Virus record (IMG/VR): IMGVR_UViG_3300024259_001623
Direction: 5' to 3' (one strand)
Source: a virus
Taxonomy: Duplodnaviria > Caudoviricetes
DNA length: 64,000 nt
The notes beneath the pieces are model-generated. The model was not told the origin of the DNA. It saw nothing but the letters and a program-made list of their open reading frames with translations, and did no database searches. The translations under genes were made by a program, and so were the position numbers. The stretch's first letter is position 1. Every line of letters begins with the position of its first letter. Positions 1,667 through 27,916 of this stretch are shown piece by piece.

Positions 1667-2278
1667 TTAATTTCTTGGGTATACATCTTTATAAAAGAGT
1701 GATTTATACCGATCATCTATATATTGTTTTCTTGCATCATGTTGTTGATCATAGAAGTATTGTGTTTTTGTATCGAAGCGCTTATCATCGAAGCGCTTAT
1801 CATAGAATTGTTTCACTACAGGGTAATCATCGTCATTGAAGAATATCTTTGTATGATCTTTGTCAAAGAAATCCCCTCGTGCAGATTTTGCTGCTTGTTT
1901 AGTGTTCATCAGGTCTTTTCGTTTGACATAGACTTTAGTAAAGACAGCATCTTCATTATCCCCTACTGCTACTAATGCATCTCTTGTAACAATAACTGGA
2001 AGAATAACTTGGTAGCTCCAATTATCGCTTGCTATGGCTTTTGCGAGTGAAGTATAGACATGAATGCCTTTATAAATTCGAGGTACTAACTTTTCCTCAA
2101 CGCTCAGGTCTGTCATTAGTCTATCTGACTGGTTACATCCTGGTTTATATGTAAAGTCTTGATATAAAGACCTTACTTCATCTCCAGTTACTCTAACAAC
2201 CTTATACATGGTGAGATCACCACCATCTAGTCGTGTTAGCATTTGTAACGTTTTTGCTACATCCATTCTAAGGCACAT
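1667..2278 (-). CDS. MC[LC]-GIHV paralog family, copy 1
   Basis: MCL start; MYKVV, Y.PG, SDR, GIHVYTS, ILPVIV, AVFTKVYV motifs. Confidence 0.8.
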   Translation of the reverse strand: MCLRMDVAKTLQMLTRLDGGDLTMYKVVRVTGDEVRSLYQDFTYKPGCNQSDRLMTDLSVEEKLVPRIYKGIHVYTSLAKAIASDNWSYQVILPVIVTRDALVAVGDNEDAVFTKVYVKRKDLMNTKQAAKSARGDFFDKDHTKIFFNDDDYPVVKQFYDKRFDDKRFDTKTQYFYDQQHDARKQYIDDRYKSLFYKDVYPRN

Positions 2279-2369
2279 TTTATTATCCTTTCGATGTTTC
2301 GTCTAGTCATCTGGATTTTGGAGATTTTTTCAGGGGTGCGAAAAAAATTACCAGTTTTGTTTATTTCTA

Positions 2370-2398
2370 TTGACAAAGTATCCTATTGGTACTAGAAT
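2370..2398 (+). promoter_or_regulatory. sigma70-consensus promoter pointing against the gene flow
   Basis: TTGACA-N17-TAGAAT in the 2279-2430 intergenic gap. Confidence 0.55.
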
Positions 2399-2430
2399 CC
2401 ACTAGATTAAGGTGTAAATCATTAATTCTA

Positions 2431-2913
2431 TCATTTGGTTCTAGCCCTTGCTTTAAATAACCTTTCCCATCCCATCCATTGAGTTATTGCTTTAAATAAC
2501 CTTTCCCATCCCATCCATTGAGTTATTGCATGTTCAAGGTCTGCTTCGTCTATATCAATTTTCATAAAAACTGCATCTCTTTCCCCTGCTCCAATAAAAT
2601 CTTCTTTTTTTACTATAACGGGAATGATTTTTTCCCATTTTGCTCTACATTCTTGTCCTTGAGAAGCTGCCCATCTTGTTGTAAAGACGTGGATACCTTT
2701 ACGGATTATTTGTCTATTCCTTTCATCTTCTGTCAATGATATTGATTCTCTATCAGAGACATTTACGCCTGGATTATAGACATATTCAGAATAGTATAGA
2801 CCTTTTGGAGTGCCTTTCCTTACATCTACTATCTTATACATAGTCATTTGTCCAAAGTCATCGAACAATTTTGATAGATGTTTGGTATTTAATTCACTTA
2901 TTTCTAAGCACAT
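2431..2913 (-). CDS. MC[LC]-GIHV paralog family, copy 2
   Basis: family motifs; C-terminal 13-aa duplication. Confidence 0.8.
   Translation of the reverse strand: MCLEISELNTKHLSKLFDDFGQMTMYKIVDVRKGTPKGLYYSEYVYNPGVNVSDRESISLTEDERNRQIIRKGIHVFTTRWAASQGQECRAKWEKIIPVIVKKEDFIGAGERDAVFMKIDIDEADLEHAITQWMGWERLFKAITQWMGWERLFKARARTK
2448..2529. repeat. 39-bp perfect tandem duplication, in frame (AITQWMGWERLFK x2)
   Basis: ttgctttaaataacctttcccatcccatccattgagtta at 2448-2486 and 2487-2525. Confidence 0.95.
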
Positions 2914-2925
2914 TTTATATTCCTA

Positions 2926-3375
2926 TTAAGGTTGACTCGCATTGATATGGGGCAGTCTTCCATTCATAATCTTATCATATATTGATTGTTTAACAAAGAC
3001 TTTCATAAATACGGCTTCATTGTTTTTGCCGCCCATAACGAAGTCTTTTTCTTCGACCATAACAGGGAGAAGAACTTCGCTCATATATGCGGAGAATCTT
3101 TGGGCTTGTGCTAATGTAGTATATACATGAATACCGGCGTTTATGACTCCAGCATGTTTTTCATTATCTGTGAGCCAAATTAGGGGTCTACTTGATTTGT
3201 TCCATCCTGGAATATATTCAAGTTCTCTATGGATAGATATTAGTTGTTTTTTTCTACCTTGAGTAGTTACATTGTCAACCATGTCTACTATTTTGTACAT
3301 AGCTAGTTGACCTTTACTCTTTGCGAACATGGCTTTGATTTTATTTGTTTCTTCTTTGTTGATTATCAGGCACAT
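2926..3375 (-). CDS. MC[LC]-GIHV paralog family, copy 3
   Basis: MCL, MYKIV, YIPGWN, GIHVYTT, AVFMKVFV. Confidence 0.8.
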   Translation of the reverse strand: MCLIINKEETNKIKAMFAKSKGQLAMYKIVDMVDNVTTQGRKKQLISIHRELEYIPGWNKSSRPLIWLTDNEKHAGVINAGIHVYTTLAQAQRFSAYMSEVLLPVMVEEKDFVMGGKNNEAVFMKVFVKQSIYDKIMNGRLPHINASQP

Positions 3376-5736: not shown

Positions 5737-6171
5737 TTACTCCAAATTCCAAGGCAAGGCTTTACTATAATCTTTTTCAGATAAATGAATCCGATTAAAA
5801 ACGGCATCATAATCATTGCCCGCAGCTATAAAGTCTATTTTCCTTACTCTGACAGGGACAACAACGTAGACCTCTTGGTTACAAAGCCACTCTCTTTTCC
5901 ACTTCAATGCCTCTTTATTATTAGTGAAAACATGAATCCCATGATAAATGATTCCAGTTATCATTTCATGATCAGTAAGTTCGGCGGATACTCCTAAATG
6001 TACATGCCTATTAGAATCATTAATCCCTGGAAGATATTTTGTATAATGATAAGGAGCAATCAATTCACCATTCGATCTACGAAGTATCTTCCACATAACA
6101 CATATATCATCATGCTCTTTAAGAGTTCTAAGAACCCTTTTTGTCCGTTTTTTGTTAATAGCTAAACACAT
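5737..6171 (-). CDS. MC[LC]-GIHV paralog family, copy 6
   Basis: family motifs. Confidence 0.8.
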   Translation of the reverse strand: MCLAINKKRTKRVLRTLKEHDDICVMWKILRRSNGELIAPYHYTKYLPGINDSNRHVHLGVSAELTDHEMITGIIYHGIHVFTNNKEALKWKREWLCNQEVYVVVPVRVRKIDFIAAGNDYDAVFNRIHLSEKDYSKALPWNLE

Positions 6172-6254
6172 GTTATTTCACCCTTTCAATGTTGTTGTCC
6201 CGCCGCCATGCGATCTTTTTAGTGAACTAGAACAGGGATAACAACTTCACTATT

Positions 6255-6728
6255 TCATTTCTCAAACGATGCAAGATATTTTTTGTAATCTTCTATAGCT
6301 TGATCATAATCTTTTTTGGCAAGAAAAACTTTTGTAAAAGCAGCATCATAATTCTGACCAGCAGCTACAAAATCTTTTAACTGTACTGTAACAGGTACAG
6401 CAACTTCAAAATCATGTTTGAATTCTTTAACTCTTTTGAGATTTGTTAAGACATGAATCCCAAGTTCAATATCCTGAAATGGATTAGAACTATATGGCCT
6501 ATACACCAAAGATTCTTGTTTAGTAAGTTTTGTGCCCTTCCTATTCGATTTATTCCAACCAGGAAAATATCTTGTTTTCATAAATGGAGTCTCAACAATA
6601 TATTTTTTACCTTTATGGTCGGGTATTGGTCTGACTATCAAAACTTTCCACATGGTAGCCTTTCCGCCGCGATCCTTTAAAGTACGCAAAACTCGTTTAG
6701 TTCTTTTGTCATCAGTTTTTAGGCACAT
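6255..6728 (-). CDS. MC[LC]-GIHV paralog family, copy 7
   Basis: family motifs. Confidence 0.8.
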   Translation of the reverse strand: MCLKTDDKRTKRVLRTLKDRGGKATMWKVLIVRPIPDHKGKKYIVETPFMKTRYFPGWNKSNRKGTKLTKQESLVYRPYSSNPFQDIELGIHVLTNLKRVKEFKHDFEVAVPVTVQLKDFVAAGQNYDAAFTKVFLAKKDYDQAIEDYKKYLASFEK

Positions 6729-7378: not shown

Positions 7379-7660
7379 TTATTCGGTGATATCGCTTTTG
7401 AATTCTTCCTTCTTTCTTTTTTCTTTTCTCTCTTTATAATCTTCAAATATTTCTTTATATTCGTTAAAAGTAATTTTGCCATCTTCCAAAGCCTTTTGCG
7501 TTTGGCATTTCACTTCATCGTCAGACGAAGACAATCGAGCTAACACTTCATAAGTCCCTGAATCTACTTCTTTGTGCGCTCTTTGATAACTGGCAAACCC
7601 AAAGGCTAAAGCTATCATAAAAGCAAAAATAATTAAAACTATAATATGTTCTTTTGTCAT
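7379..7660 (-). CDS. single-TM 'DGKI' family protein
   Basis: N-terminal TM, then Y..L...ALEDGKIT..EY; shared with 10222-11358. Confidence 0.7.
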   Translation of the reverse strand: MTKEHIIVLIIFAFMIALAFGFASYQRAHKEVDSGTYEVLARLSSSDDEVKCQTQKALEDGKITFNEYKEIFEDYKERKEKRKKEEFKSDITE

Positions 7661-7671
7661 AATATATCTCC

Positions 7672-8121
7672 TTACCAGCTTACTGAGATAAGGTAATCTC
7701 CATAAGGCAGAAAACCTTTATTCGCTAAGAAAAGAAGAAATTGTTCTAAACCAAAACAACTAACAGAACGAGTAACTTTGCCTGTTGAGTCTTTAGTTTC
7801 CCAAATCAAATCTTCTTCTTCCGATATTTCACCTTCTTTTATAGTCACACTATAACTGGTATCATTAGGGCTATCATTCAGTTCTAGTCGAGAATCAAAA
7901 CCTAGACATTTAGCAGCATATTCATCTAAGCCTAGTTTGCCTTCTTTTCGTACCCATGCGTAAGTAAACCAATCCAAACAATAAACATGTTTTTCCTCAA
8001 AAGCAATTTCTTCTGGCATCTTATCCATTTTTCTTTCCTCTTTTGATTTTTCTTTTTTTCTTAACGTCTTTAAATTCCCAGAGTTGTGACCAACGTGAAC
8101 TATTCCAGCCTGGAGTATCAA
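7672..8121 (-). CDS. hypothetical protein (start probably MDKMPEE)
   Basis: coherent acidic C-terminal part; N-terminal extension overlaps the upstream gene. Confidence 0.55.
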   Translation of the reverse strand: MILQAGIVHVGHNSGNLKTLRKKEKSKEERKMDKMPEEIAFEEKHVYCLDWFTYAWVRKEGKLGLDEYAAKCLGFDSRLELNDSPNDTSYSVTIKEGEISEEEDLIWETKDSTGKVTRSVSCFGLEQFLLFLANKGFLPYGDYLISVSW

Positions 8122-8323
8122 ATTGTAATCCTACTCCCATCCCGAAATCACACGCAAAGTGTAATCCATACCATTGTTCTTGAAAATATCCAACATAATA
8201 TTTATAACCAAATCTGTCATTTTTACCTATTTTAGCCAAGTACAAATTATCTTTACCCAATTTAATATCAGGATGATTATGTTCCTTGCCCTTAGATAAA
8301 TCTATTTCTGTTAATTTAATCAT
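8021..8323 (-). CDS. hypothetical protein
   Basis: 100 aa, aromatic-rich, GAGG RBS. Confidence 0.6.
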   Translation of the reverse strand: MIKLTEIDLSKGKEHNHPDIKLGKDNLYLAKIGKNDRFGYKYYVGYFQEQWYGLHFACDFGMGVGLQFDTPGWNSSRWSQLWEFKDVKKKRKIKRGKKNG

Positions 8324-8958
8324 TTTATTACCTCAAAACGACTTCGTGAGCATCATTACATTCTTCGCAAAAAACATAAACGCTCAATTCGTTTTCCTTA
8401 CCGTTGCCAGCGTCACAATTAGTACAAGGAGAAAAAAACTAAAGTCTATGGAGCTAACTTCATCTTCTACTATCTTGCCGGTTTTCGGACATTTGAATCT
8501 TATGATAGTTTCTTCTAGTTTCGCTTTTTCTGACATTGTTATTCTCTTTTAAAATTTAGTATAATTTTTATGGTAGCCGCATTTAGTACATGTCACTGAA
8601 ACACGGGTTATTTTATTCGAAAATATAGCATCATCAAAACAATTTTTAGTAACTATAGTGCATTCTTTCTCTTCAGTTTTCCAGTCATGCTTACAAAAAC
8701 ATTCTCGTAGATAATTAATAATAAATTTCATTGTTTATCTCCTATTTACTTCTTCGACTTCACAATCAGGCATGAAAGCAGCATTTTGGGTCATATGATC
8801 TCTTTGCATACAATAGAAAACCATAGAACATTCATCATTACCATGTAAAGGAATGAATGCTCCCTTATACCATACCAATCCACGGCCAAGAGTAGGCACA
8901 ATAAAATGCGATCCTTCAGTCAAATCTTTCAATTGTGTCATGTTTGATCTCCTTAAAC

Positions 8959-9032
8959 TGGGCCTACTAGGACTTGAACCTAGAACCTTCGCATTATGAG
9001 TGCGCTGCGCTAACCGATTACGCCATAGGCCC
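8959..9032 (-). tRNA. tRNA with CAU anticodon, probably Ile2 (lysidine type)
   Basis: GGGCCTA acceptor, GCGCA-CT CAT AA-TGCGA, A discriminator; lacks initiator GGG/CCC stem. Confidence 0.8.
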
Positions 9033-9041
9033 GATACATAT

Positions 9042-9236
9042 TTATACAGGTTGATGAGGCAATGATGCCCAATGAGTTACTTTCCCTAATATTAAATAAT
9101 GTCTTCCTGATGAAGCAGTATACCAAGAGTCAACACTTTTGATATATATAGCGATATCAATAGATCCATGAGAAACTAAAACTCTTGTCTCTTGTTCAGG
9201 CATAACATCTTCAACTTTATTCCAAGTGTCATACAT
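9042..9236 (-). CDS. DUF551-like small phage protein
   Basis: WNKVEDVMPE..RVLV...VTHWASLP. Confidence 0.7.
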   Translation of the reverse strand: MYDTWNKVEDVMPEQETRVLVSHGSIDIAIYIKSVDSWYTASSGRHYLILGKVTHWASLPHQPV

Positions 9237-9316
9237 TTTTATTCCTTTCCAAGTAATATAAAGGCTCCCGATAACGCCGGTGGTATACCGCTTAATCGTT
9301 AGGGTCGCTCTTATAT

Positions 9317-12425: not shown

Positions 12426-14096
12426 CTATATTTTACCGAGAATAAAATCGCTAACCATTTGAGGCGTTGCAGTATCGAAACCTACAACGTTCAACGAGTT
12501 ACGATCTTCGTTGTCAGTGATGCTATAAGGATTAGCTAACATACCACAAGCAATCATCTTAGCATCGTTTCTTCTTTTCTTACTGTCCCGATACAACTTC
12601 AAAGACCGATCTACATGAGTCTCGCCAGCCCAAGTCTCCATATCAGAGAGAATAACAAAAGCATCAACATCTACATTCTTACTCTTTGCCCAATTGGTAG
12701 CGATAGCTGCATCGGTGCCACCAAAGTTGCTCATCTGGGCCTTCTTCATTGCAGTCTGAATCGAATCCTTGGCAGTAATCTTCAAGTCTACCAAATTATG
12801 AGCGAAGCCCATGATATGATAGTTAGGTTCGGTTCTGGCAAAGACCATAGCCATTGCAGCAGCAGCAACGCAAGGACTCATATTACGGATACCAGATACT
12901 TCACCGCCAGCCATAGAACCAGAAACATCAACCGCCAAAAGGATATTCTTACCAGTTGGCTCAACATTCTTGAAGGACAGATAAAAAGCATCGTCCAACG
13001 CATCAAGAATCTGAGGAACTGGCTCATAACCTAACGAAGTAGGATAACCCCAATACGAATGGGTAAACTGATTGCTATAGGCACACATCGCTGCTAATAC
13101 GCTCAAAGGATGAATTCTGGCCTTATGCAACACTTCCTCATTTCTCAAAGTCTCACAAACATACTTTGTAGACGAGGATAGCGGAGTCAAAACGCCTGCC
13201 TTTGTCATATTACGGATATTACGAATCATAGCAGTCATTGGCATACCATCCAGCAATGCCTTCCATACCTTCTTATCATAAAGAGTATTAGGTACGCTCT
13301 CACGAACCAAACCATACTTCTTAATCATAGAAACCATTTCCTTGCTATCATCTACAGTCTTAGCAGTCTCATGTGCCCAGATATATCTAGTGGCATCATT
13401 CTTCTCCAACTTCGCAAACTGGACCTTGGTGAATCCCTTTCTTCCCTTAACGATATACTTCAAAACGGTTTGCATATCCTTACTACCGGGGATCAAGTGG
13501 ATTTTACGCAGCAAATCTCTATGCGACCAAGACGCTTCGCCTTCTACCTTACGCTGAGGATACTTACAAGCCTGGAATGCTACGGAATTAGGAGTCTTAC
13601 TGGTATACCAACTACCAATAGCCTTACGCAAACCTCTACCCCATCCTCTCATTTGGTCTACATAAGTCACGAAACTGAACAAATATGTTCCGATACGACA
13701 GACCTTGTTTAAGTTATCCAAAGCGTACTTACGAATCTCGTCATTATCGCAAGAAGCTGCTAAAGCCATAACAAAGATAGCAGGATCATTCTTGGCTGCA
13801 CGACCTTCATTAGAAACTGCGATAGTTTCGTCAATAGCAGCCATTCCGCCTTCGGTAGTCTTAAACAGCTTAGTTACATTCTTGGCGTTTTCCTTAGCGA
13901 ACTTTTTCTTACCAACATAAAAAGTTCCGCCATCAGAACCAAGAATTAAGAACCTACGAAGATGCTCTAACCGATCAACAGAATAAACATACCCACCGGC
14001 GTTATTCTTGACTTGACGCTTGTTCGCTCTCTGAGTCTGAGGAACGTCTACGTTACGTGAAGCTAAACCACTATCCTTAACAATATTCTTAGCCAT
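12426..14096 (-). CDS. rsr: Ro60/TROVE-domain RNA-binding protein with C-terminal vWA domain
   Basis: NNAGGYVY, L.RFLILGSDGGTFY, KY.QR..WSHRDLLR..H, MP.TAMIRN, vWA MIDAS AVDVSGSM, GGTD, DAFVILSD.ET, VGFD. Confidence 0.95.
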   Translation of the reverse strand: MAKNIVKDSGLASRNVDVPQTQRANKRQVKNNAGGYVYSVDRLEHLRRFLILGSDGGTFYVGKKKFAKENAKNVTKLFKTTEGGMAAIDETIAVSNEGRAAKNDPAIFVMALAASCDNDEIRKYALDNLNKVCRIGTYLFSFVTYVDQMRGWGRGLRKAIGSWYTSKTPNSVAFQACKYPQRKVEGEASWSHRDLLRKIHLIPGSKDMQTVLKYIVKGRKGFTKVQFAKLEKNDATRYIWAHETAKTVDDSKEMVSMIKKYGLVRESVPNTLYDKKVWKALLDGMPMTAMIRNIRNMTKAGVLTPLSSSTKYVCETLRNEEVLHKARIHPLSVLAAMCAYSNQFTHSYWGYPTSLGYEPVPQILDALDDAFYLSFKNVEPTGKNILLAVDVSGSMAGGEVSGIRNMSPCVAAAAMAMVFARTEPNYHIMGFAHNLVDLKITAKDSIQTAMKKAQMSNFGGTDAAIATNWAKSKNVDVDAFVILSDMETWAGETHVDRSLKLYRDSKKRRNDAKMIACGMLANPYSITDNEDRNSLNVVGFDTATPQMVSDFILGKI

Positions 14097-15999: not shown

Positions 16000-16204
16000 C
16001 TTATATTACTCCACCAAAAAATAACTGCTGTTTCAGGGAGATCAAGAAGGCAACGCCCAACGCATGAACCTTTTGAACCGACTTTCCTTTTTAGTCATGT
16101 CGAAGTAAATCCTGAAAGGTGCTAGACATTTCTTCTGAGTCACCACTAATCTCAGCGTAAACTCTTTTTTCTACCAATTCAATGAATTTCATCTATATTA
16201 TCCT

Positions 16205-16651
16205 TTATTTAAACTCTTTGGGAATATATTCTAATTTTAGCATTATTGCAACTGTATAACCACCCAAATGTCTCCATACAACATCTAGATAATCTTTAAA
16301 AGTTGGATAAAGATTTTCTTTTGGTGCTATTTTCTTATCTGTGCCTTCATCCGATATCTTCCCCCCGAATTGCAGAGCTACTTCATTAATGATAGAATGA
16401 TCTACCCACCAAATAAAATTCCCGCCGCCACCATGTCTCATTTCAAAATGTTTTTCGCCTTCTAGCCAGCAAATTCTACTCTCATTAATTTGTGGACATT
16501 TAATAGTCCAGACATGATCTGCAAAACCATCTTCTGAGTATTCTACCGTGAGAGTATTTTTAAACTTATCTTTAATAAGCCTATTAATTAGTTCAGTAAT
16601 TTGTTCTGGATCAATTTTCTTACGAGTTTTCACCCAAGCATGATTAGCCAT
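16205..16651 (-). CDS. hypothetical protein
   Basis: 148 aa, coupled to the ligase C-fragment. Confidence 0.65.
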   Translation of the reverse strand: MANHAWVKTRKKIDPEQITELINRLIKDKFKNTLTVEYSEDGFADHVWTIKCPQINESRICWLEGEKHFEMRHGGGGNFIWWVDHSIINEVALQFGGKISDEGTDKKIAPKENLYPTFKDYLDVVWRHLGGYTVAIMLKLEYIPKEFK

Positions 16652-17262
16652 TATTCTTCTATCCCATTTTTTATAATCTTTTCATATCGCCAATGACAAC
16701 TTGTTTGTACATGATTGGCTCTTACATATTTTGCTAATGATCTCTGGAAGTCTCCATACGAAAAACTATCAACCAGTCTAACAACATATCCTTCACATTC
16801 ATCATTGTTATGTTCTTTTTCAAATAACTCTTTTATCTTGTCAACGTCCCAGATGCCTCTATACAGTTCAGGGACAACTGATACCCCTAAAACATCTGCC
16901 CATTCTACCATATCATCCCAACTCAAACATTCATTCTTATCATTCCATATACTAAACAGATAAAAATACGATTTTAGATTTTTATAGTGAATAGAATGTT
17001 TGGCAAATAGGTTCTCTCCACAGAATCTCCAACCATCTGGAATCTCATAAGATATTTTAGAATGAAGATTCTTTACCCAACCTCTGGATGGATGAGAAGC
17101 TCCGAAAATAGATCGAGCGTGTAAATAGTCTTTATACATAGAACAATTATGTACTAATATTCCATTGGCAAAAAAATTATTATTACCACTGACGGATATA
17201 TCATATAATTTTGATTTATTAGATATTTTCTTTATTTTTTTGATTTTTACTTTTTTCAACAT
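16651..17262 (-). CDS. split-intein C-part (39 aa) fused to C-terminal half of an RNA ligase
   Basis: LYDISV.GNNNFFANGILVHN/C splice junction, then ligase motifs CGENL, FYLFSIW, VVP.LY.G, EGYVVR, KYVR. Confidence 0.9.
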   Translation of the reverse strand: MLKKVKIKKIKKISNKSKLYDISVSGNNNFFANGILVHNCSMYKDYLHARSIFGASHPSRGWVKNLHSKISYEIPDGWRFCGENLFAKHSIHYKNLKSYFYLFSIWNDKNECLSWDDMVEWADVLGVSVVPELYRGIWDVDKIKELFEKEHNNDECEGYVVRLVDSFSYGDFQRSLAKYVRANHVQTSCHWRYEKIIKNGIEE

Positions 17263-18271
17263 TTTTTAACCTATCTAATAATAATTCCATTAACTCACAA
17301 TCATCAATGGCTTTCATCTCTTTTTCCCATATATAAATAACAAAATAATTATATTTTTCTGCTATTGCATTTTTTAGAGAATCTTTTTTCCAAACCTCTC
17401 CTGCTTTTATGATACCATTAGGAAACTTTAAAATATCATCTTTTTTATAAATTTCAGGATTAGCGTGCCAATAGTCACCATTAATTTCTAAAATTATTCT
17501 TGTTTTATTTATTTTGAAATCGAAACTTTTTCTATTTATCCAAAATTGTCTAGTAAAACCGATATTAAGTTCTTCTAAAACATTAGAAATTCTTGTTTCA
17601 AGCTTACTAGAGAAATTATGAACAAAGTTTTTACATCTTTTCTGTATTATAATATTCTTTTGCTCATCTGATAAGTTTTTCCAATATTTTTTATATCCAT
17701 CGTGTAACTTATCCATCCTAATCTTTTTATCTTCTGGCGAAATTATTTGCCAGTGATCATTCATTTTTCCATATCTATTAGGAAGCGATTTTTTACCGTA
17801 ATTCTCTAACATATAGTCATGCAACCATGAATAATATTCTTCAGACTTCCATATATTATCTACTCCATAATTTTTCAAAAAAGTTTGTTTCTTTTTATCT
17901 TGTATATCTTTTGATTTAGAAACATTATCAACACCATATTTCTTTTCGCATGTATTCTTATATTTTTGTCTAGTCCTTATCGTAGACGTTGCCTCTCTTT
18001 TGGTCCTTTTATCAATGCCGAAATATTTTAATAAAAATTGACTTTGTACAAAATTAAGTCCATATTCTTGTAAAAAATCTGTTAAACTCCAAAACTCATT
18101 AATGTATTTATTTTTAAAATCTTCTTTATCAAATATATTTTTCTTATCAAAACATATTTGTTTAAATCTTAATTCCTGTTTATCTAAATTGATATTGTTT
18201 TTTTTAGCACAAAAATAAATATGACGAGAATTTCTTTTGTTAATTTGTTCTTTACATATAAAGCATTCCAT
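17219..18271 (-). mobile_element. free-standing Vsr/DUF559-like homing endonuclease inside the fractured ligase gene
   Basis: KYGVDN repeats, SKLE..I, FDF.I, ILEINGDYWH, VIYIWEKE; lies between the two split-intein halves. Confidence 0.8.
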
Positions 18272-18328
18272 AGAGTTATCTCCTTTTTATTACTATTCAA
18301 CAATAAAAATGGAGATTCCTCTATTTTA

Positions 18329-19147
18329 TTAGTCGTTTATAAGAAATTCATCATTTTCTGATAAATCTTTGACGCATCTATAACAATTTAAATTAGGCAA
18401 CCAAACTCTATGTTCTCCCGTTATTTTTATCATTCTGCCATCTTCTAACTCAATTTCATACCATTCTTTTTTACTATTCTCATTGATAGAGAATCCATCA
18501 ATTTTTTTGTATTCAATCTGACCAGTTTCAGCATCCATAGATAAAACTTTACAATCTATTTTTTGCTCACAAACGTCTTGTATGCTCTTTATTCCCAAAT
18601 CCGTATTTAACTCAGTTTCTTGGTCAAGACAGTTCTCACCGTCCATTTTAACGGTCACAACGACCTCTCTACCTTCAAAGTGTTCTGTAGACTTTAATTG
18701 TCGATCATCATTAGTTAATCCAGGACTCCAAGGCAAATGTAAAGTTCTAGGATACTTAATATATTTAGAAAATAAATATAATACTTTCCCTTGCTTTAAA
18801 ATCTTTTGTACTGAATGATCAAAGAATAATTCTCCTTTTAATCTTTCTCCGCTTGGCAACATAATATTTCCCCACTTATCATATTCATATTCGTCATATA
18901 AATGAGAAGGAATAATTACGTTTTCGATGCCAGCAGCCATTCTTAAATCTTCACAAGAAAGATGAGTTTGTTCAGCCGCAATATGATGATATCCGCACAA
19001 AGAGACACCGTTATCTAAATGATAACCGCCATCATCCCATAAACGTCTTTCTATGATATGATGAGCATCTTGCGCATCTTTTCCGCATATAACGCATTTG
19101 TGGTTATCTCTTTCAAAAACAGATTGTCTAAATTCATCTCTAGTCAT
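18329..19147 (-). CDS. HNH domain + RNA ligase N-half + split-intein N-part (100 aa)
   Basis: CxxC..DAHH..ERR..NGVSLC..HH; KYPRT.HLPWSPG; motif I KMDGEN followed by intein CLD..T, block B ITGEHRVW. Confidence 0.9.
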   Translation of the reverse strand: MTRDEFRQSVFERDNHKCVICGKDAQDAHHIIERRLWDDGGYHLDNGVSLCGYHHIAAEQTHLSCEDLRMAAGIENVIIPSHLYDEYEYDKWGNIMLPSGERLKGELFFDHSVQKILKQGKVLYLFSKYIKYPRTLHLPWSPGLTNDDRQLKSTEHFEGREVVVTVKMDGENCLDQETELNTDLGIKSIQDVCEQKIDCKVLSMDAETGQIEYKKIDGFSINENSKKEWYEIELEDGRMIKITGEHRVWLPNLNCYRCVKDLSENDEFLIND

Positions 19148-19152
19148 TTTAA

Positions 19153-19560
19153 TTATGTTTGTAATGCTTCGTTAAAATCTTTCTTTTTAATAAATATTTT
19201 AGTAAATACGGCATCGTAACTTTTGCCTGCTGCTAAAAAGTCTTTTTTGTAAACTACTACAGGGACAACCACTTCCCAGGTATGGGCAAATTTTATAGCA
19301 CTAGGCTTATTAGTAAAGACATGCAGACCATGATGGATTTCGTGACTAGCCTTTTCAAACTTAGTTAATGTTTTACTCTCCCGATCAGAAATATTCCAAC
19401 CAGAATCATAATGTGTCTCCCGCCAAGGAGCTATTAAAACCCATTTGCCATCGATGATTGTTTTCTTATATAGAACTTTCCACATAATACATTTGCCACC
19501 ATGTTCTTTTAAAGTTCTTAAAACTCTTTTGGTTCTTTTATCATAAATTTTGCAACACAT
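19153..19560 (-). CDS. MC[LC]-GIHV paralog family, copy 9
   Basis: MCC start, KRTKRVLRTLK, GLHVFTN, AVFTK. Confidence 0.8.
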   Translation of the reverse strand: MCCKIYDKRTKRVLRTLKEHGGKCIMWKVLYKKTIIDGKWVLIAPWRETHYDSGWNISDRESKTLTKFEKASHEIHHGLHVFTNKPSAIKFAHTWEVVVPVVVYKKDFLAAGKSYDAVFTKIFIKKKDFNEALQT

Positions 19561-19571
19561 AATTTATTCCT

Positions 19572-19994
19572 TTATCTCCCTGATCTCATGTTTCTATCAT
19601 CGCTACGAATATCATCTTCGGTTGATGGTTGTCCATCTGCTCCATAAGATATAATCAACGGTGCATTATTCTTGGAATATCTAAAATTATTTCCAAAAGA
19701 ATCTATGAAACGTTCATCTTCTATAGTTCCCTCATTGTCAGCAGTTCCCTGCATTAACGATGCTATTTCAGGAATAGTTAATACATCTTTTAAATATCTA
19801 GGATATTCTTGATGATATCTATGATAGGTTAGAACAGCCTTACTCAAAACTTTCAGTCTAGCACTTGTCTCATCTTCTTGCGCTCTTACTTGAACATAAC
19901 TTCCTACACTTACAATCAAAGAAATCAATATACCCATAATACTAATAACAACCAACATCTCTATAATAGTAAAGCCTTTTCGTTTCTTACTCAT
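19572..19994 (-). CDS. GspG/type IV pilin-like protein with prepilin cleavage motif
   Basis: KRKG/FTIIEMLVVISI, C-terminal DSFGN.FRY...SYGADG...DDI. Confidence 0.85.
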   Translation of the reverse strand: MSKKRKGFTIIEMLVVISIMGILISLIVSVGSYVQVRAQEDETSARLKVLSKAVLTYHRYHQEYPRYLKDVLTIPEIASLMQGTADNEGTIEDERFIDSFGNNFRYSKNNAPLIISYGADGQPSTEDDIRSDDRNMRSGR

Positions 19995-20256
19995 TAGAAT
20001 CTCACTCCCTTATCACTTTTGGCGATTACAACGGCTTCCAAGCATTGTCTTTCAGTATCGAACTTATGAGCATCCATTCTGACAGTATGAGAAAAAGCCC
20101 ACGTACCGAATAAACGAACGAGTTCAACTAATGTATTCCAGTTCCAATAAAAAGCATACCAGCGACCATAACAAGTCTGATGTACTTTTACCCCAGCCTC
20201 TTCAGCAAAAGAGCGTAGTTCTTCAATAGTTTTTATATTGTCAACTTCTATGCACA

Positions 20257-20742
20257 TTATAATGTTTCCAATTCTTCGATGGCCTTATAATAATCAGCTT
20301 TTTTAAGAAAAACCTTCATAAACACAGCATCATACCAATCTCCAGCATACATAAAATCTTTTTGATGTACTGTGACAGGGACTACTAAACAATCACCTTC
20401 ATTGTTGAATTCATCCTTCTTAACCCACAATGCTTGTTTTTTATTAGTAAAGACATGAATGCCCTCTTCTACCGTATTACCGTAAAGTTCGTAATCATCT
20501 AATTTTTTGCTGTATCTATTAGACCTAATGCAACCATATTTGTATTCATAGTCCATATATGGAGTGATCAACTTTACACCTTCATATCCATGATCTTCTA
20601 CAAACAAAACTTTCCACATGACGCATTTTCCGCCATTCTTTTTGAAAGTTCTTCTTACCCTTCTGGTTCTTAAATCATCGATTTCTAAACACACTATTTC
20701 TTCTCCATAAATAAATCTTCTAACTCTGCTCCTTCTATCCAT
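20257..20742 (-). CDS. MC[LC]-GIHV paralog family, copy 10 (true start probably GTG at VCLEIDD)
   Basis: family motifs. Confidence 0.8.
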   Translation of the reverse strand: MDRRSRVRRFIYGEEIVCLEIDDLRTRRVRRTFKKNGGKCVMWKVLFVEDHGYEGVKLITPYMDYEYKYGCIRSNRYSKKLDDYELYGNTVEEGIHVFTNKKQALWVKKDEFNNEGDCLVVPVTVHQKDFMYAGDWYDAVFMKVFLKKADYYKAIEELETL

Positions 20743-20899
20743 CGAGCATATTGATCTTCTGTTATACCTAAAAAATCTATCAGAGAAATATCTTCTTCTG
20801 AATTATGCCATGTTTCAATAAAATCATCTATTTGGTCTGATGTGACTTTACCTTGTCGGAATTGTTCAGCAAATGTTTCTTTATTCATCGTTTTCTTTC

Positions 20900-21106
20900 T
20901 TAAGGAATAAATTTTTTGACTGACCACTGTTTACAATTAGGGCATCTGATTGTGACGCAAATCTTTGTTTTTTCATGGCCCCATTCATCCCCTTCTTCAA
21001 TATAAAAATCATCTTCATCAATTACAACATGAAATTTACGATTACAACAGGGACATTCACCTGTGACTTCAAAATCAAGTTCTGATGTTATTTCTTCGTA
21101 TGACAT
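20900..21106 (-). CDS. small zinc-ribbon protein
   Basis: CPCC and CPNC pairs. Confidence 0.55.
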   Translation of the reverse strand: MSYEEITSELDFEVTGECPCCNRKFHVVIDEDDFYIEEGDEWGHEKTKICVTIRCPNCKQWSVKKFIP

Positions 21107-21117
21107 ATCATTCCTCT

Positions 21118-21558
21118 TTAAGCTGGCATCGTAGCCGCATAATAATCTTCCTTTTGTAAAAAGACTTTAGTAAAAACAACATCTCCTAAATTACCAGCAG
21201 CAATAAAATCATTTTTACTTACTGTTACTGGTATCACAATAAGACTTACTTCATCATGATTTTCATTATCATAATATTTTTTCCGAAGACGAAGATACCT
21301 TTTTGCTTGTCTCTTACTATAGAAGACATGAATACCATAATTGACTTCTTCCCACCTTATCTCAATATCAGTCAATTTGTTACTTGTTCTATTTGAATAA
21401 ATCCAGCCTGACTTATATCTAAAACCATACGAAGCAAAATACATAGGAAGTAATTGATTATTACGTAGATTAACAACCTTGTACATAACAAGACTGCCCT
21501 TCTTCTCAAGCTTTTTTCTTATCTTTTCAGTTCTTGCGTCATCGATTTCTAAACACAT
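21118..21558 (-). CDS. MC[LC]-GIHV paralog family, copy 11
   Basis: family motifs. Confidence 0.8.
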   Translation of the reverse strand: MCLEIDDARTEKIRKKLEKKGSLVMYKVVNLRNNQLLPMYFASYGFRYKSGWIYSNRTSNKLTDIEIRWEEVNYGIHVFYSKRQAKRYLRLRKKYYDNENHDEVSLIVIPVTVSKNDFIAAGNLGDVVFTKVFLQKEDYYAATMPA

Positions 21559-21583
21559 TTTATTTCTTCCTAATGATATGTAA

Positions 21584-21658
21584 TACTCCGGACGGGACTT
21601 GAACCCGCAAACTCCGGGATGAAAACCCAGCGACTTTATCCAATTTGTCTACCAGAGC
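21584..21658 (-). tRNA. tRNA-Glu(UUC)
   Basis: CTGGG-TT TTC AT-CCCGG; cloverleaf. Confidence 0.88.
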
Positions 21659-21666
21659 GAATATAA

Positions 21667-21740
21667 TACTCTGAACGGGATTCGAACCCGTGATCTTTAG
21701 ATTGAGAGTCTAACGAATTAAACCGCTATTCTACCAGAGC
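21667..21740 (-). tRNA. tRNA-Glu(CUC)
   Basis: TTAGA-CT CTC AA-TCTAA; cloverleaf. Confidence 0.88.
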
Positions 21741-21748
21741 GTATATAA

Positions 21749-21822
21749 AACTCTGGACGGGATTCGAACCCGCGATCTTTAGGATGAAAACCTAACGAAT
21801 TAAACCGCTATTCTACCAGAGC
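21749..21822 (-). tRNA. tRNA-Glu(UUC)
   Basis: TTAGG-TT TTC AT-CCTAA; near-duplicate of the CUC copy. Confidence 0.88.
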
Positions 21823-21830
21823 GTAAGTTT

Positions 21831-22079
21831 TTATGCAGAAACAAAGCGACACATACCTTGATCAGCAGTATTAATACGCCAATCCATTTCTTCCAATTCT
21901 GACATTTCATCATCAGAAATCAGTTCTGTATCGACCATGACAAAAATTTCATCATGGTCAGCACACATTACATAATCTTCGTCATTATACTTCTCGAAGA
22001 TTTCGAAAGCTCGCTTAAAGCCTGCAAAACTGTTACCATTAATCTTCTTTACTTCATCTGTCATCTTACATTCCTTCAA
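21831..22079 (-). CDS. hypothetical phage protein
   Basis: 82 aa, ADHDEIFV motif. Confidence 0.6.
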   Translation of the reverse strand: MKECKMTDEVKKINGNSFAGFKRAFEIFEKYNDEDYVMCADHDEIFVMVDTELISDDEMSELEEMDWRINTADQGMCRFVSA

Positions 22080-22173
22080 AAAGTTAGTTCTTCTCTATGC
22101 AACAGCAATTCTGATTCTCCCGTCAGGGAGATATTCTATTATATAACCTCAATTACATAAAAACAAGACAATT

Positions 22174-26948: not shown

Positions 26949-27109
26949 TGCAGAGAGTTGGACTCGAACCAACAAACCTAAGTAGAATAAAATCTAAGTT
27001 CATTCTTAACTTGCATACTAGACATCAATGTCCTTGTCATTGCACCCAGTTATGCTCTAGGTCATAGAACCATAAGCTCTAATTGCGTTACCAATTACGC
27101 TACCTCCGC
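26949..27109 (-). ncRNA. tRNA-like RNA with about 85-nt insertion, 5' end overlapping the sigma-factor stop
   Basis: GCGGAGG/TCTCTGC acceptor, GCGT/ACGC D stem, GTTGG-TTCGAGT-CCAAC. Confidence 0.65.
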
Positions 27110-27916
27110 TTTAAATCCTTCCGCATACCTCGCAATATCAGCATTAATTCCACTCCTATCAATACTAAACAATCTATGAACTTCGCGTAAAGCCGCTTTA
27201 TATCTGTAATGCGCTCCACTCTCTGTCAGTCCAAGTTCCTTGGCTATTTGAATTTTTCCCTCTCCAAAAACAGCCGATTTAATAAGAATATCCCTATGTT
27301 CATTACTAAGCTTACTAATCAACGAATATACCAAATCTTTATCTTCAAGAGCCTGATCTGGACTTCTGTGAGGATCAAGTATCGGTGTATCAAAGTCCGG
27401 CGTTATCGTTATAGATTGTTTTGTAAACCATTTAACAGCACTATCTATGCAAGATATATTTTTATCTGACAAATTAGCCTCTTCTTTAATACGTTTTGGA
27501 GACTCATCTTGCTTACCATGCAAGTCAAATTGGGCCTTTCTATATGCAGCCATGTTACGACGAACAGAACGAGGAATACCACTCCATTCAGATTGACAAT
27601 CAACTATCATACCACGAACCCTTCTATACGCATAAAGAACAAAAGAATCAATCCCTTTGTCTTGCTGCTCCGGGTCAAACTTTCGTAACGCTTTCACTAA
27701 ACCTATAGAAGCTTCCGCTATCAAATCATCAAGGTCTACCTGTATATTAAAATACTTTTTAGTAGTAGAAGATAATTTAATAATCCAAGCCCAATAATTT
27801 TTTACCAAAATATTTTCATCATGGCTATTATGATCGGCTTTATATCTCAGCCATACTTTTTCTAACTTATTTTTATCTAAGCTTTTAGCTATGTTTAATC
27901 TTTTTTCTTTCTGCAT
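27095..27916 (-). CDS. sigma70-family RNA polymerase sigma factor (FliA/WhiG-like group)
   Basis: region 2 DLDDLIAEASIGL.KAL.KFDP...YA..RVRG.I.D; region 4 IAKELGLTESG HTH. Confidence 0.85.
   Translation of the reverse strand: MQKEKRLNIAKSLDKNKLEKVWLRYKADHNSHDENILVKNYWAWIIKLSSTTKKYFNIQVDLDDLIAEASIGLVKALRKFDPEQQDKGIDSFVLYAYRRVRGMIVDCQSEWSGIPRSVRRNMAAYRKAQFDLHGKQDESPKRIKEEANLSDKNISCIDSAVKWFTKQSITITPDFDTPILDPHRSPDQALEDKDLVYSLISKLSNEHRDILIKSAVFGEGKIQIAKELGLTESGAHYRYKAALREVHRLFSIDRSGINADIARYAEGFKAEVA

Follow-up and report, generated by a model that had tools for sequence, protein, structure and literature searches.

A phage HNH-fused RNA ligase gene in two pieces around a predicted split intein and a Vsr-like endonuclease gene

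The virus record IMGVR_UViG_3300024259_001623 (Duplodnaviria; Caudoviricetes) was analysed over a stretch of 64,000 nucleotides (nt), here called the window. Between positions 16,651 and 19,147 it carries three open reading frames (ORFs) that are best explained as a fractured gene: a phage HNH-Rnl2/Rnl5-type RNA ligase appears to have been invaded, directly after its motif I, by a cassette made of a class-1 split intein and a Vsr-like endonuclease gene. We put the probability of this explanation at about 85%. The endonuclease ORF lies on the same strand as, and between, the gene that bears the N-terminal intein half (IntN) and the gene that bears the C-terminal one (IntC), an order that is shared by the related cassettes L001, L002 and L004. 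In this region of the window every gene is on the minus strand, and the three ORFs were verified to the base. The features are listed below, with the evidence for each in brackets; lengths are in amino acids (aa).

18329-19147, minus strand: N-half gene, 272 aa, with HNH domain, ligase N-extein and IntN, closed by a double stop TAA TAA (ORF list, translation, phrog_24030)
18962-19147, minus strand: HNH zinc-finger nuclease domain, about residues 1-62 of the N-half (HNH PHROG and Pfam matches at residues 3-60)
18632-18649, minus strand: ligase motif I, K167-M-D-G-E-N172 (sequence; family-invariant residues)
18332-18631, minus strand: predicted IntN, 100 aa, Cys173-Asp272 (TIGR01445, DnaE IntN match, conservation over 35 IntN)
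18270-18324, minus strand: predicted RNA hairpin in the 57-nt spacer between the N-half and endonuclease genes (folding against shuffles)
17219-18271, minus strand: free-standing putative homing-endonuclease gene, 350 aa (DUF7487, phrog_3339, orthologues in three other cassettes)
17249-17614, minus strand: Vsr-like nuclease domain, endonuclease residues 220-341 (structural superposition; invariant D251, E262, H269, D297)
17219-17262, minus strand: 44-nt overlap of the endonuclease 3' end with the start of the C-half gene (ORF coordinates)
16651-17262, minus strand: C-half gene, 203 aa, with IntC and C-extein (ORF list, translation)
17146-17262, minus strand: predicted IntC, 39 aa, Met1-Asn39 (TIGR01443, gp41-1 IntC match, conservation over 37 IntC)
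16651-17145, minus strand: C-extein, 164 aa and stop, the rest of the nucleotidyltransferase domain (PF09414, phrog_24030, P0011)

In the C-half, IntC ends in ...ILVHN and is followed by the +1 residue Cys40 (nt 17143-17145), which opens CSMYKDYLHARS and is continued by SMYKDYLHARS.... The predicted joined product is 172 + 164 = 336 aa long, with the junction KMDGEN-CSMY. An earlier note on this DNA had described the same anatomy from the letters and the ORF list, with an HNH domain, motif I KMDGEN and a 100-aa IntN beginning at Cys173 (nt 18631) in one gene, and a 39-aa IntC with its His-Asn end, the +1 Cys and the remaining ligase in the other. Its coordinates and counts were all right, the translation bears out the second half, and the length of 336 aa that it gave for the trans-spliced product was confirmed.

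The genes at 18329-19147 and 16651-17262 appear to be one ligase gene in two pieces, because together they span a single PHROG RNA-ligase profile, phrog_24030 (342 positions), from one end to the other. N-half residues 1-175 match profile positions 4-179 (E 2.8e-73), and C-half residues 38-201 match positions 175-340 (E 4.2e-60). In addition, the C-half matches the Pfam model PF09414 (RNA_ligase) over positions 13-171 of 171, with 92.2 bits (cut-off 27; E 5.4e-26). Lys167 is the predicted adenylylated lysine, with the predicted intein insertion point directly after N172. Residues K171, D173, G174, E175 and N176 of P0038, an uninterrupted relative that is 66% identical, are invariant in the family and map to K167-N172 of the window ligase.

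The fold was tested on P0038, whose predicted model has a predicted local distance difference test score (pLDDT) of 92.8. Its best structural matches are NgrRnl, the Naegleria nick-sealing ligase (E 1.8e-6), T4 Rnl2 (1.6e-5), the archaeal Rnl3 and the fungal Trl1. With one exception, an Aquifex entry whose deposited name is putative DNA ligase, the 35 matches at E <= 0.001 are all RNA ligases. A sequence search of the PDB with P0038 gave no match, and NCBIfam has models for neither the ligase nor the endonuclease. The Cys and His residues of the HNH domain (C22, C25, H33, H34, C55, H59) are invariant in 68 uninterrupted alleles, so this domain is part of the host enzyme rather than of the mobile element. 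Taken from profile and model, the host is probably an HNH-fused Rnl2/Rnl5-type ATP-dependent RNA ligase; HNH-fused ligases of the Rnl2 family have been noted in jumbo phages (Iyer et al. 2021, PMC7824862).

The interruption itself has the features of a canonical class-1 split intein. A search with hidden Markov models of inteins had been proposed in the earlier note, and both halves pass the curated cut-offs of the NCBIfam models, IntN with 34.0 bits on TIGR01445 (cut-off 24.5) and IntC with 37.8 bits on TIGR01443 (cut-off 15.6). Among solved structures, IntN matches the Npu and Ssp DnaE IntN (E 2e-5) and IntC matches that of gp41-1 (E 6e-5). The earlier note had named the pair a candidate new orthogonal split intein; since IntC resembles the gp41-1 half and IntN the DnaE half, cross-reaction with the halves of these inteins may occur. 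Block A opens with Cys1, which is Cys173 and stands directly after KMDGEN; block B reads T243-G-E-H246. In the C-half we find Asp21 in block F and His38-Asn39 in block G, followed by Cys40 at +1. The two halves are oppositely charged, -11 for IntN (median of the homologues -8) and +8 for IntC (median +6). An acidic IntN and a basic IntC are the polarity known from fast split inteins.

Conservation was read from 35 IntN and 37 IntC metagenomic homologues, whose whole halves are about 45-64% identical to those of the window. Cys1 is present in 35 of 35 IntN sequences (100%), and block B has its Thr in 97% and its His in 91% of them. Among the IntC sequences the block F Asp is found in 95%, the terminal His-Asn in 100% and Cys at +1 in 92%, with Ser in the remainder. 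At IntN residue 21 (18569-18571, within DVCEQ) a further Cys predominates and is found in at least 80% of the 35 homologues.

A complex was predicted for N-half residues 166-272 with C-half residues 1-46. Its score was 0.76, and the best of three controls had 0.00. Of 78 solved complexes 51 come up to this mark, and of 108 mismatched pairs 2 do; runs agreed in at least 91% of contacts, with a partner pLDDT of at least 73. Because similar split-intein complexes have already been solved, the score speaks for likeness only and not for binding, and the predictor may have drawn on those structures.

The first alternative is that the halves assemble unspliced, with the intein pieces serving as a dimerisation module and the ligase working as a heterodimer that is not covalently joined, like the Aeh1 NrdA halves split by mobE. 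Unspliced fractured genes do exist (Aeh1 nrdA and SbcD-like cases; PMC2677866, PMC3045599), and the tight IntN-IntC interface that is predicted would hold the halves together anyway. The nucleophiles and catalytic residues, however, are needed for chemistry and not for binding, yet they are near-invariant in the 35-37 diverged homologues. Moreover, the break falls within the motif-I beta-hairpin at the active site, where a 139-aa HINT domain should hinder catalysis. We consider this alternative improbable, though it is the strongest of those we weighed.

The gene in the gap matches DUF7487 (E 4e-13), phrog_3339, annotated in PHROG as 'homing endonuclease' (E 4.9e-14), and weakly DUF559 (E 0.0067). 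It consists of an N-terminal Cys/His motif, a DUF7487 region in which a YGVDN repeat occurs twice, and a Vsr-like nuclease at the C-terminus; the N-terminal two thirds, with the motif and the repeats, are presumably for DNA binding. A sequence search of the PDB gave no match for this protein, and a fold search was used. In a model built from four orthologue sequences (pLDDT 73.8), residues 220-341 superpose on E. coli Vsr (1cw0_A) with a Z-score of 11.6 and a root-mean-square deviation of 3.2 over 114 aligned residues, and on the catalytic domain of I-Bth0305I (3r3p_B) with Z 10.2 and 96 of 98 residues aligned (both by VIA-align). Generic PD-(D/E)xK nucleases score Z <= 7.6, and two apicomplexan mitoribosome chains reach 10.9 and 9.8, the same range as Vsr and I-Bth0305I. 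The full-length model finds Vsr in Foldseek at E 0.077 only.

Residues D251, E262, H269 and D297 are invariant in the four orthologues, and their spacing is that of Vsr D51, F62, H69 and D97, the residues named in PMC2677866. Position 62 of Vsr is where the EDxHD family has its extra acidic residue (PMC2677866; Taylor et al. 2011, PMC3239194). The model thus points to a Vsr-like homing endonuclease of the EDxHD type, in line with the earlier proposal that a Vsr-like gene fills the gap, for which the match to E. coli Vsr now speaks. We found no paper on DUF7487 in the literature, and a tblastn search of the window gave no second copy of the endonuclease, IntN or IntC. One further locus, region 590500-598500 (L005) of the 735-kb uncultured phage LR756501.1, was considered as a fractured ligase and rejected, as the endonuclease relative there stands free. 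This relative (307 aa, 33% identity) lies at 4847-5770 of L005, and an uninterrupted ligase of the same family that lacks the HNH domain (1280-1909) is found 3 kb away.

Fractured genes with this arrangement were described by Dassa et al. in 2009 (PMC2677866), among them gp41-1, gp41-8, NrdJ-1 and IMPDH-1; in these the endonuclease 3' end overlaps the downstream half by 6-69 bp and hairpins are found in the endonuclease leader. The earlier note had placed the locus in this known arrangement, and our data agree. The overlap of 44 nt in the window is within the published range, and the relatives have overlaps of 50 nt (L001), 14 nt (L002) and 20 nt (L004). The 57-nt spacer is predicted to fold into a hairpin of -21.6 kcal/mol (z -4.46), and none of 200 shuffled sequences was as stable. 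Its 3' arm pairs with the Shine-Dalgarno sequence AAAGGAG of the endonuclease gene and with the first two bases of the AUG. Hairpins over the ribosome-binding site or the AUG were also found in L001 and L002 (z about -2.6). Such a hairpin would delay endonuclease translation or keep it low, a form of control known from other free-standing endonucleases of phages. No promoter was assigned, as the promoter box TCCCTGA is absent from the minus strand at 16875-22122; a sigma-70 scan gave 22 hits against 19.5 expected, which is background.

A search for intein-free ligase alleles, which the earlier note had also proposed, was successful. The closest of 2570 relatives in the metagenomic protein collection is P0011, a partial and uninterrupted allele; it is 85% identical to the N-extein of the window and, over the first 47 C-extein residues, 96% identical. 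It runs across the junction as KMDGEN-TSMYKDYLHARS (KMDGEN-TSMYKDY), without gain or loss of a residue; where the window has the +1 Cys, P0011 has a Thr. The +1 position of uninterrupted alleles is Thr in 114 cases, Ser in 8 and Cys in 4. A seawater contig also matches the N-extein as far as nt 18633 and then continues N-T-N-I-Y-H-D-V-I-H; the run it comes from also contains the locus, and the contig shows the intact junction of a related allele from the same water.

The same order of N-half, DUF7487 endonuclease (338-356 aa) and overlapping C-half was found on contigs of 212, 197 and 107 kb (L001, L002 and L004), with endonuclease orthologues that are 37-45% identical. In metagenomes this junction recurs in at least 35 N-halves and 37 C-halves. 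At least 17 seawater metagenome runs from 2018-2019 have the locus of the window, and no RNA dataset is listed among the public runs that contain it. Four runs were compared at the locus, all of them low-coverage contigs, and a direct join of the two exteins of this allele was on none of these contigs. Two candidates were set aside: the 'half-share' runs as a cassette-less variant, because their cover is fragmentary, and a 663-nt joint inside the endonuclease gene in X11, one side of which is only 22 nt long.

These data also bear on a second and very improbable alternative, a dead and decaying ligase gene that was disrupted by the cassette and whose pieces are being lost. Homing elements can inactivate non-essential genes, and jumbo phages often have several RNA ligases that could compensate (PMC7824862). 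Against decay, all three ORFs are intact, the joined exteins retain 47 of the 47 residues that are invariant in the 68 uninterrupted alleles, the intact three-gene layout recurs in many diverged phages, and the locus is identical across several seawater runs.

The 35 split alleles fail to group as one clade in an N-extein tree of 184 rows and 173 columns. Their distribution needs 25 changes (mean of shuffled data 32.5), at least 5 of which are forced by well-supported branches, and the extein of the window pairs with that of the intein-free P0011 at 99% in the Shimodaira-Hasegawa-like approximate likelihood-ratio test (SH-aLRT). The least probable alternative, a splicing step co-opted as a switch (redox-sensitive through Cys1 and Cys+1, or set by differential expression of the halves) that times or restricts a potentially harmful HNH nuclease-ligase, would suit the two Cys nucleophiles, the conserved Cys21 and the placing of HNH domain and lysine motif on one half with the rest of the ligase on the other, but a selfish element accounts better for the scattered presence and absence among close alleles than a regulatory device that is fixed, and most alleles work without the cassette.

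Several points weigh against the fractured-gene explanation. Splicing and DNA cleavage are here predictions from sequence. The single halves score 30.0 and 34.1 bits on the Pfam intein model PF14890, below its gathering cut-off of 35.8; such scores are expected for halves of one model, though formally they fall short. The leader hairpin of L004, one of the four cassettes, is insignificant (z -1.23). The equivalence to the catalytic residues of Vsr is drawn from spacing and a domain-level superposition and not from a printed residue alignment. Finally, the N-extein tree is short, 79 of its 181 branches are unsupported, and co-conversion near the insertion site could blur it, so that only the qualitative point stands: the scattered distribution of the cassette would fit repeated gain by homing, repeated loss, or both.

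With these points taken into account, we infer the following course for a fractured ligase gene. The two ligase halves would be translated separately, and the acidic IntN and basic IntC would associate and fold into one HINT domain. Canonical protein trans-splicing would then be performed by Cys173, Thr243 and His246, Asp21, His38-Asn39 and Cys40 at +1, and would release the 336-aa ligase. The hairpin over its ribosome-binding site would restrain translation of the endonuclease. The endonuclease, in turn, would cut, close to the motif-I codons, the alleles of related phages that are uninterrupted, and repair would copy in the whole cassette of IntN, endonuclease and IntC (homing).

The same HNH-ligase family also contains contiguous inteins with a nested LAGLIDADG_2 domain, which were found by an exhaustive search of metagenomic proteins. 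P0264 (700 aa) has such an intein at the identical site, KLDGEN-C...HN-CSIY. In P0234, P0239 and P0252 (698-743 aa), and also in P0273, which is shorter (530 aa), the site is one residue upstream, KMDGE-C...HN-CTTMY, where the +1 Cys replaces the Asn of motif I; this upstream site is filled by contiguous LAGLIDADG inteins and, in one case, by an intein of about 190 aa. In P0256, an uninterrupted allele, the +1 position of the upstream site is a Cys. Blocks F and G of IntC are identical between the window and P0264 at about 14 of 20 residues. Identity of the N-terminal splicing regions is no more than 19% (E 0.13), which argues that the split intein of the window is not a recent derivative of the contiguous one. 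Motif I may be an intein hotspot with three states (uninterrupted, contiguous with LAGLIDADG, and split with a Vsr-like gene), in which the split form arose by replacement of the nested LAGLIDADG domain by the Vsr-like gene; we regard this as a tentative and rather unlikely proposal. If true, the family would be a natural series capturing how inteins become split, and would offer dozens of diverged, possibly mutually orthogonal split-intein pairs.

The genes around the ligase were also inspected. A homologue of Ro60 (TROVE E 1e-34, Ro60 vWA E 6e-47) is encoded at 12426-14096 on the minus strand, 2.5 kb downstream of the ligase, which is in line with a neighbourhood of RNA surveillance or repair. 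The window has 24 tRNA genes, from 7220 to 46349 and all on the minus strand. In L004, the C-half is directly followed (7651-9252) by an HD and AAA_33 gene resembling polynucleotide kinase-phosphatases and by a PTH2 peptidyl-tRNA hydrolase gene, and these neighbours link the ligase to RNA repair in that relative. From this gene neighbourhood, with Ro60 and many tRNA genes in the window and the two genes in L004, a role of the ligase in RNA or tRNA repair seems plausible, by analogy with the proposal made for jumbo phages (PMC7824862).

Just upstream of the ligase are three paralogous small genes of 135-161 aa (19153-19560, 20257-20742 and 21118-21558, minus strand) that share the motifs C-x-E-I-D-D...RT, GIHVF, VVPV and DAVFTKVF. 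None of the three has a Pfam match, and 19153-19560, the only one scanned against PHROG, has no match there either. Among them lies a gene for a pseudopilin-like protein (19572-19994, minus strand) with an N-terminal prepilin methylation motif (PF07963, E 2e-8) and a match to protein G of the type II secretion system (PF08334, E 8e-7). Three tandem tRNA-Glu genes (21584-21822, minus strand) are directly upstream of the paralogue array, and a sigma-70-like factor, which may recognise the phage-specific promoter box, is encoded at 27095-27916 (minus strand; region 2 E 9e-7, region 4 E 4e-4). In the relatives, L001 has at 5853-6359 an extra ORF of 168 aa between the N-half and the endonuclease gene, with no Pfam match, and L002 has at 2149-3351 an IS605 OrfB/TnpB-type gene (Cas12f-like), 1.6 kb upstream of the split ligase.

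The earlier note had judged both the RNA ligase host and the insertion site to be unusual. This holds for the literature and for GenBank phages and fails for nature at large, given the at least 35 N-halves and 37 C-halves in metagenomes. We found no paper that links an RNA ligase of the PF09414 type to an intein; the RNA-ligase inteins that have been reported are in RtcB-type and tRNA-splicing ligases of actinophages. Among 50,697 GenBank phage records, 32-33 carry the ligase and none of these has a recognisable IntN or IntC, and megablast of positions 16000-20000 against GenBank phages gave no match.

The arrangement as such has been known since 2009 (PMC2677866). New are the HNH-Rnl2/Rnl5-type RNA ligase as host, the scattered distribution of the cassette, and the contiguous LAGLIDADG inteins at the same and the adjacent site. 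The locus extends the fractured-gene arrangement from enzymes of DNA metabolism to an RNA-repair enzyme, and shows that the cassette also targets a lysine-nucleotidyl motif. The diverged natural IntN/IntC pairs, at least 35 in number and canonical in size (about 100 and 35-39 aa, with Cys at +1), are candidate tools for protein ligation, and the uninterrupted, contiguous-LAGLIDADG and split alleles at one site form a data set on intein splitting and on the spread of cassettes among huge phages. We regard the locus as a solid new example rather than a new principle, and it leaves current understanding unchanged.

Several known systems can be compared with the one described here. The HNH-Rnl2 ligases of jumbo phages share the N-terminal HNH domain, the ATP-dependent RNA ligase and the RNA-repair setting, whereas the survey that describes them mentions an intein only in ribonucleotide reductase and none in these ligases (PMC7824862). 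The contiguous LAGLIDADG inteins of P0264, P0234, P0239 and P0252 have the same HNH-RNA ligase host and the same or an adjacent insertion point; each is one polypeptide with a nested LAGLIDADG_2 domain, while the window has a split intein and a Vsr-like gene. I-Bth0305I, the prototype of the EDxHD family (PMC3239194, PDB 3r3p), has the two-part build that is predicted for the endonuclease of the window, a repeat-bearing N-terminal DNA-binding region and a C-terminal nuclease of the Vsr fold with conserved acidic, His and acidic residues. It resides in a group I intron of recA, whereas the endonuclease of the window sits between split-intein halves, has an N-terminal region of DUF7487 that bears a Cys/His motif and a twofold YGVDN repeat, and as a protein matches no PDB chain in sequence.

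The natural DnaE split inteins of Npu and Ssp, and the derivatives engineered from them, have in common with the intein of the window the class-1 chemistry with Cys1 and Cys+1, the acidic IntN, the basic IntC and the canonical split position. In the cyanobacterial DnaE genes, however, the halves are far apart with no endonuclease between them, and the host protein and flanking extein residues are other than those of the window (N at -1, CSMY from +1). The fractured genes of Dassa et al. also combine a Vsr-like endonuclease, a 3' overlap and a leader hairpin; the IntN and IntC of the window, of about 100 and 39 aa, are similar in size to solved split inteins, and the IntC resembles that of gp41-1. 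The eight hosts in that study function in DNA synthesis or repair (gp41, IMPDH, DnaE, NrdA, NrdJ, DNA ligase, terminase and one unknown; PMC2677866), whereas the host in the window is an RNA-repair enzyme, by the prediction made above, with the insertion directly after ligase motif I.

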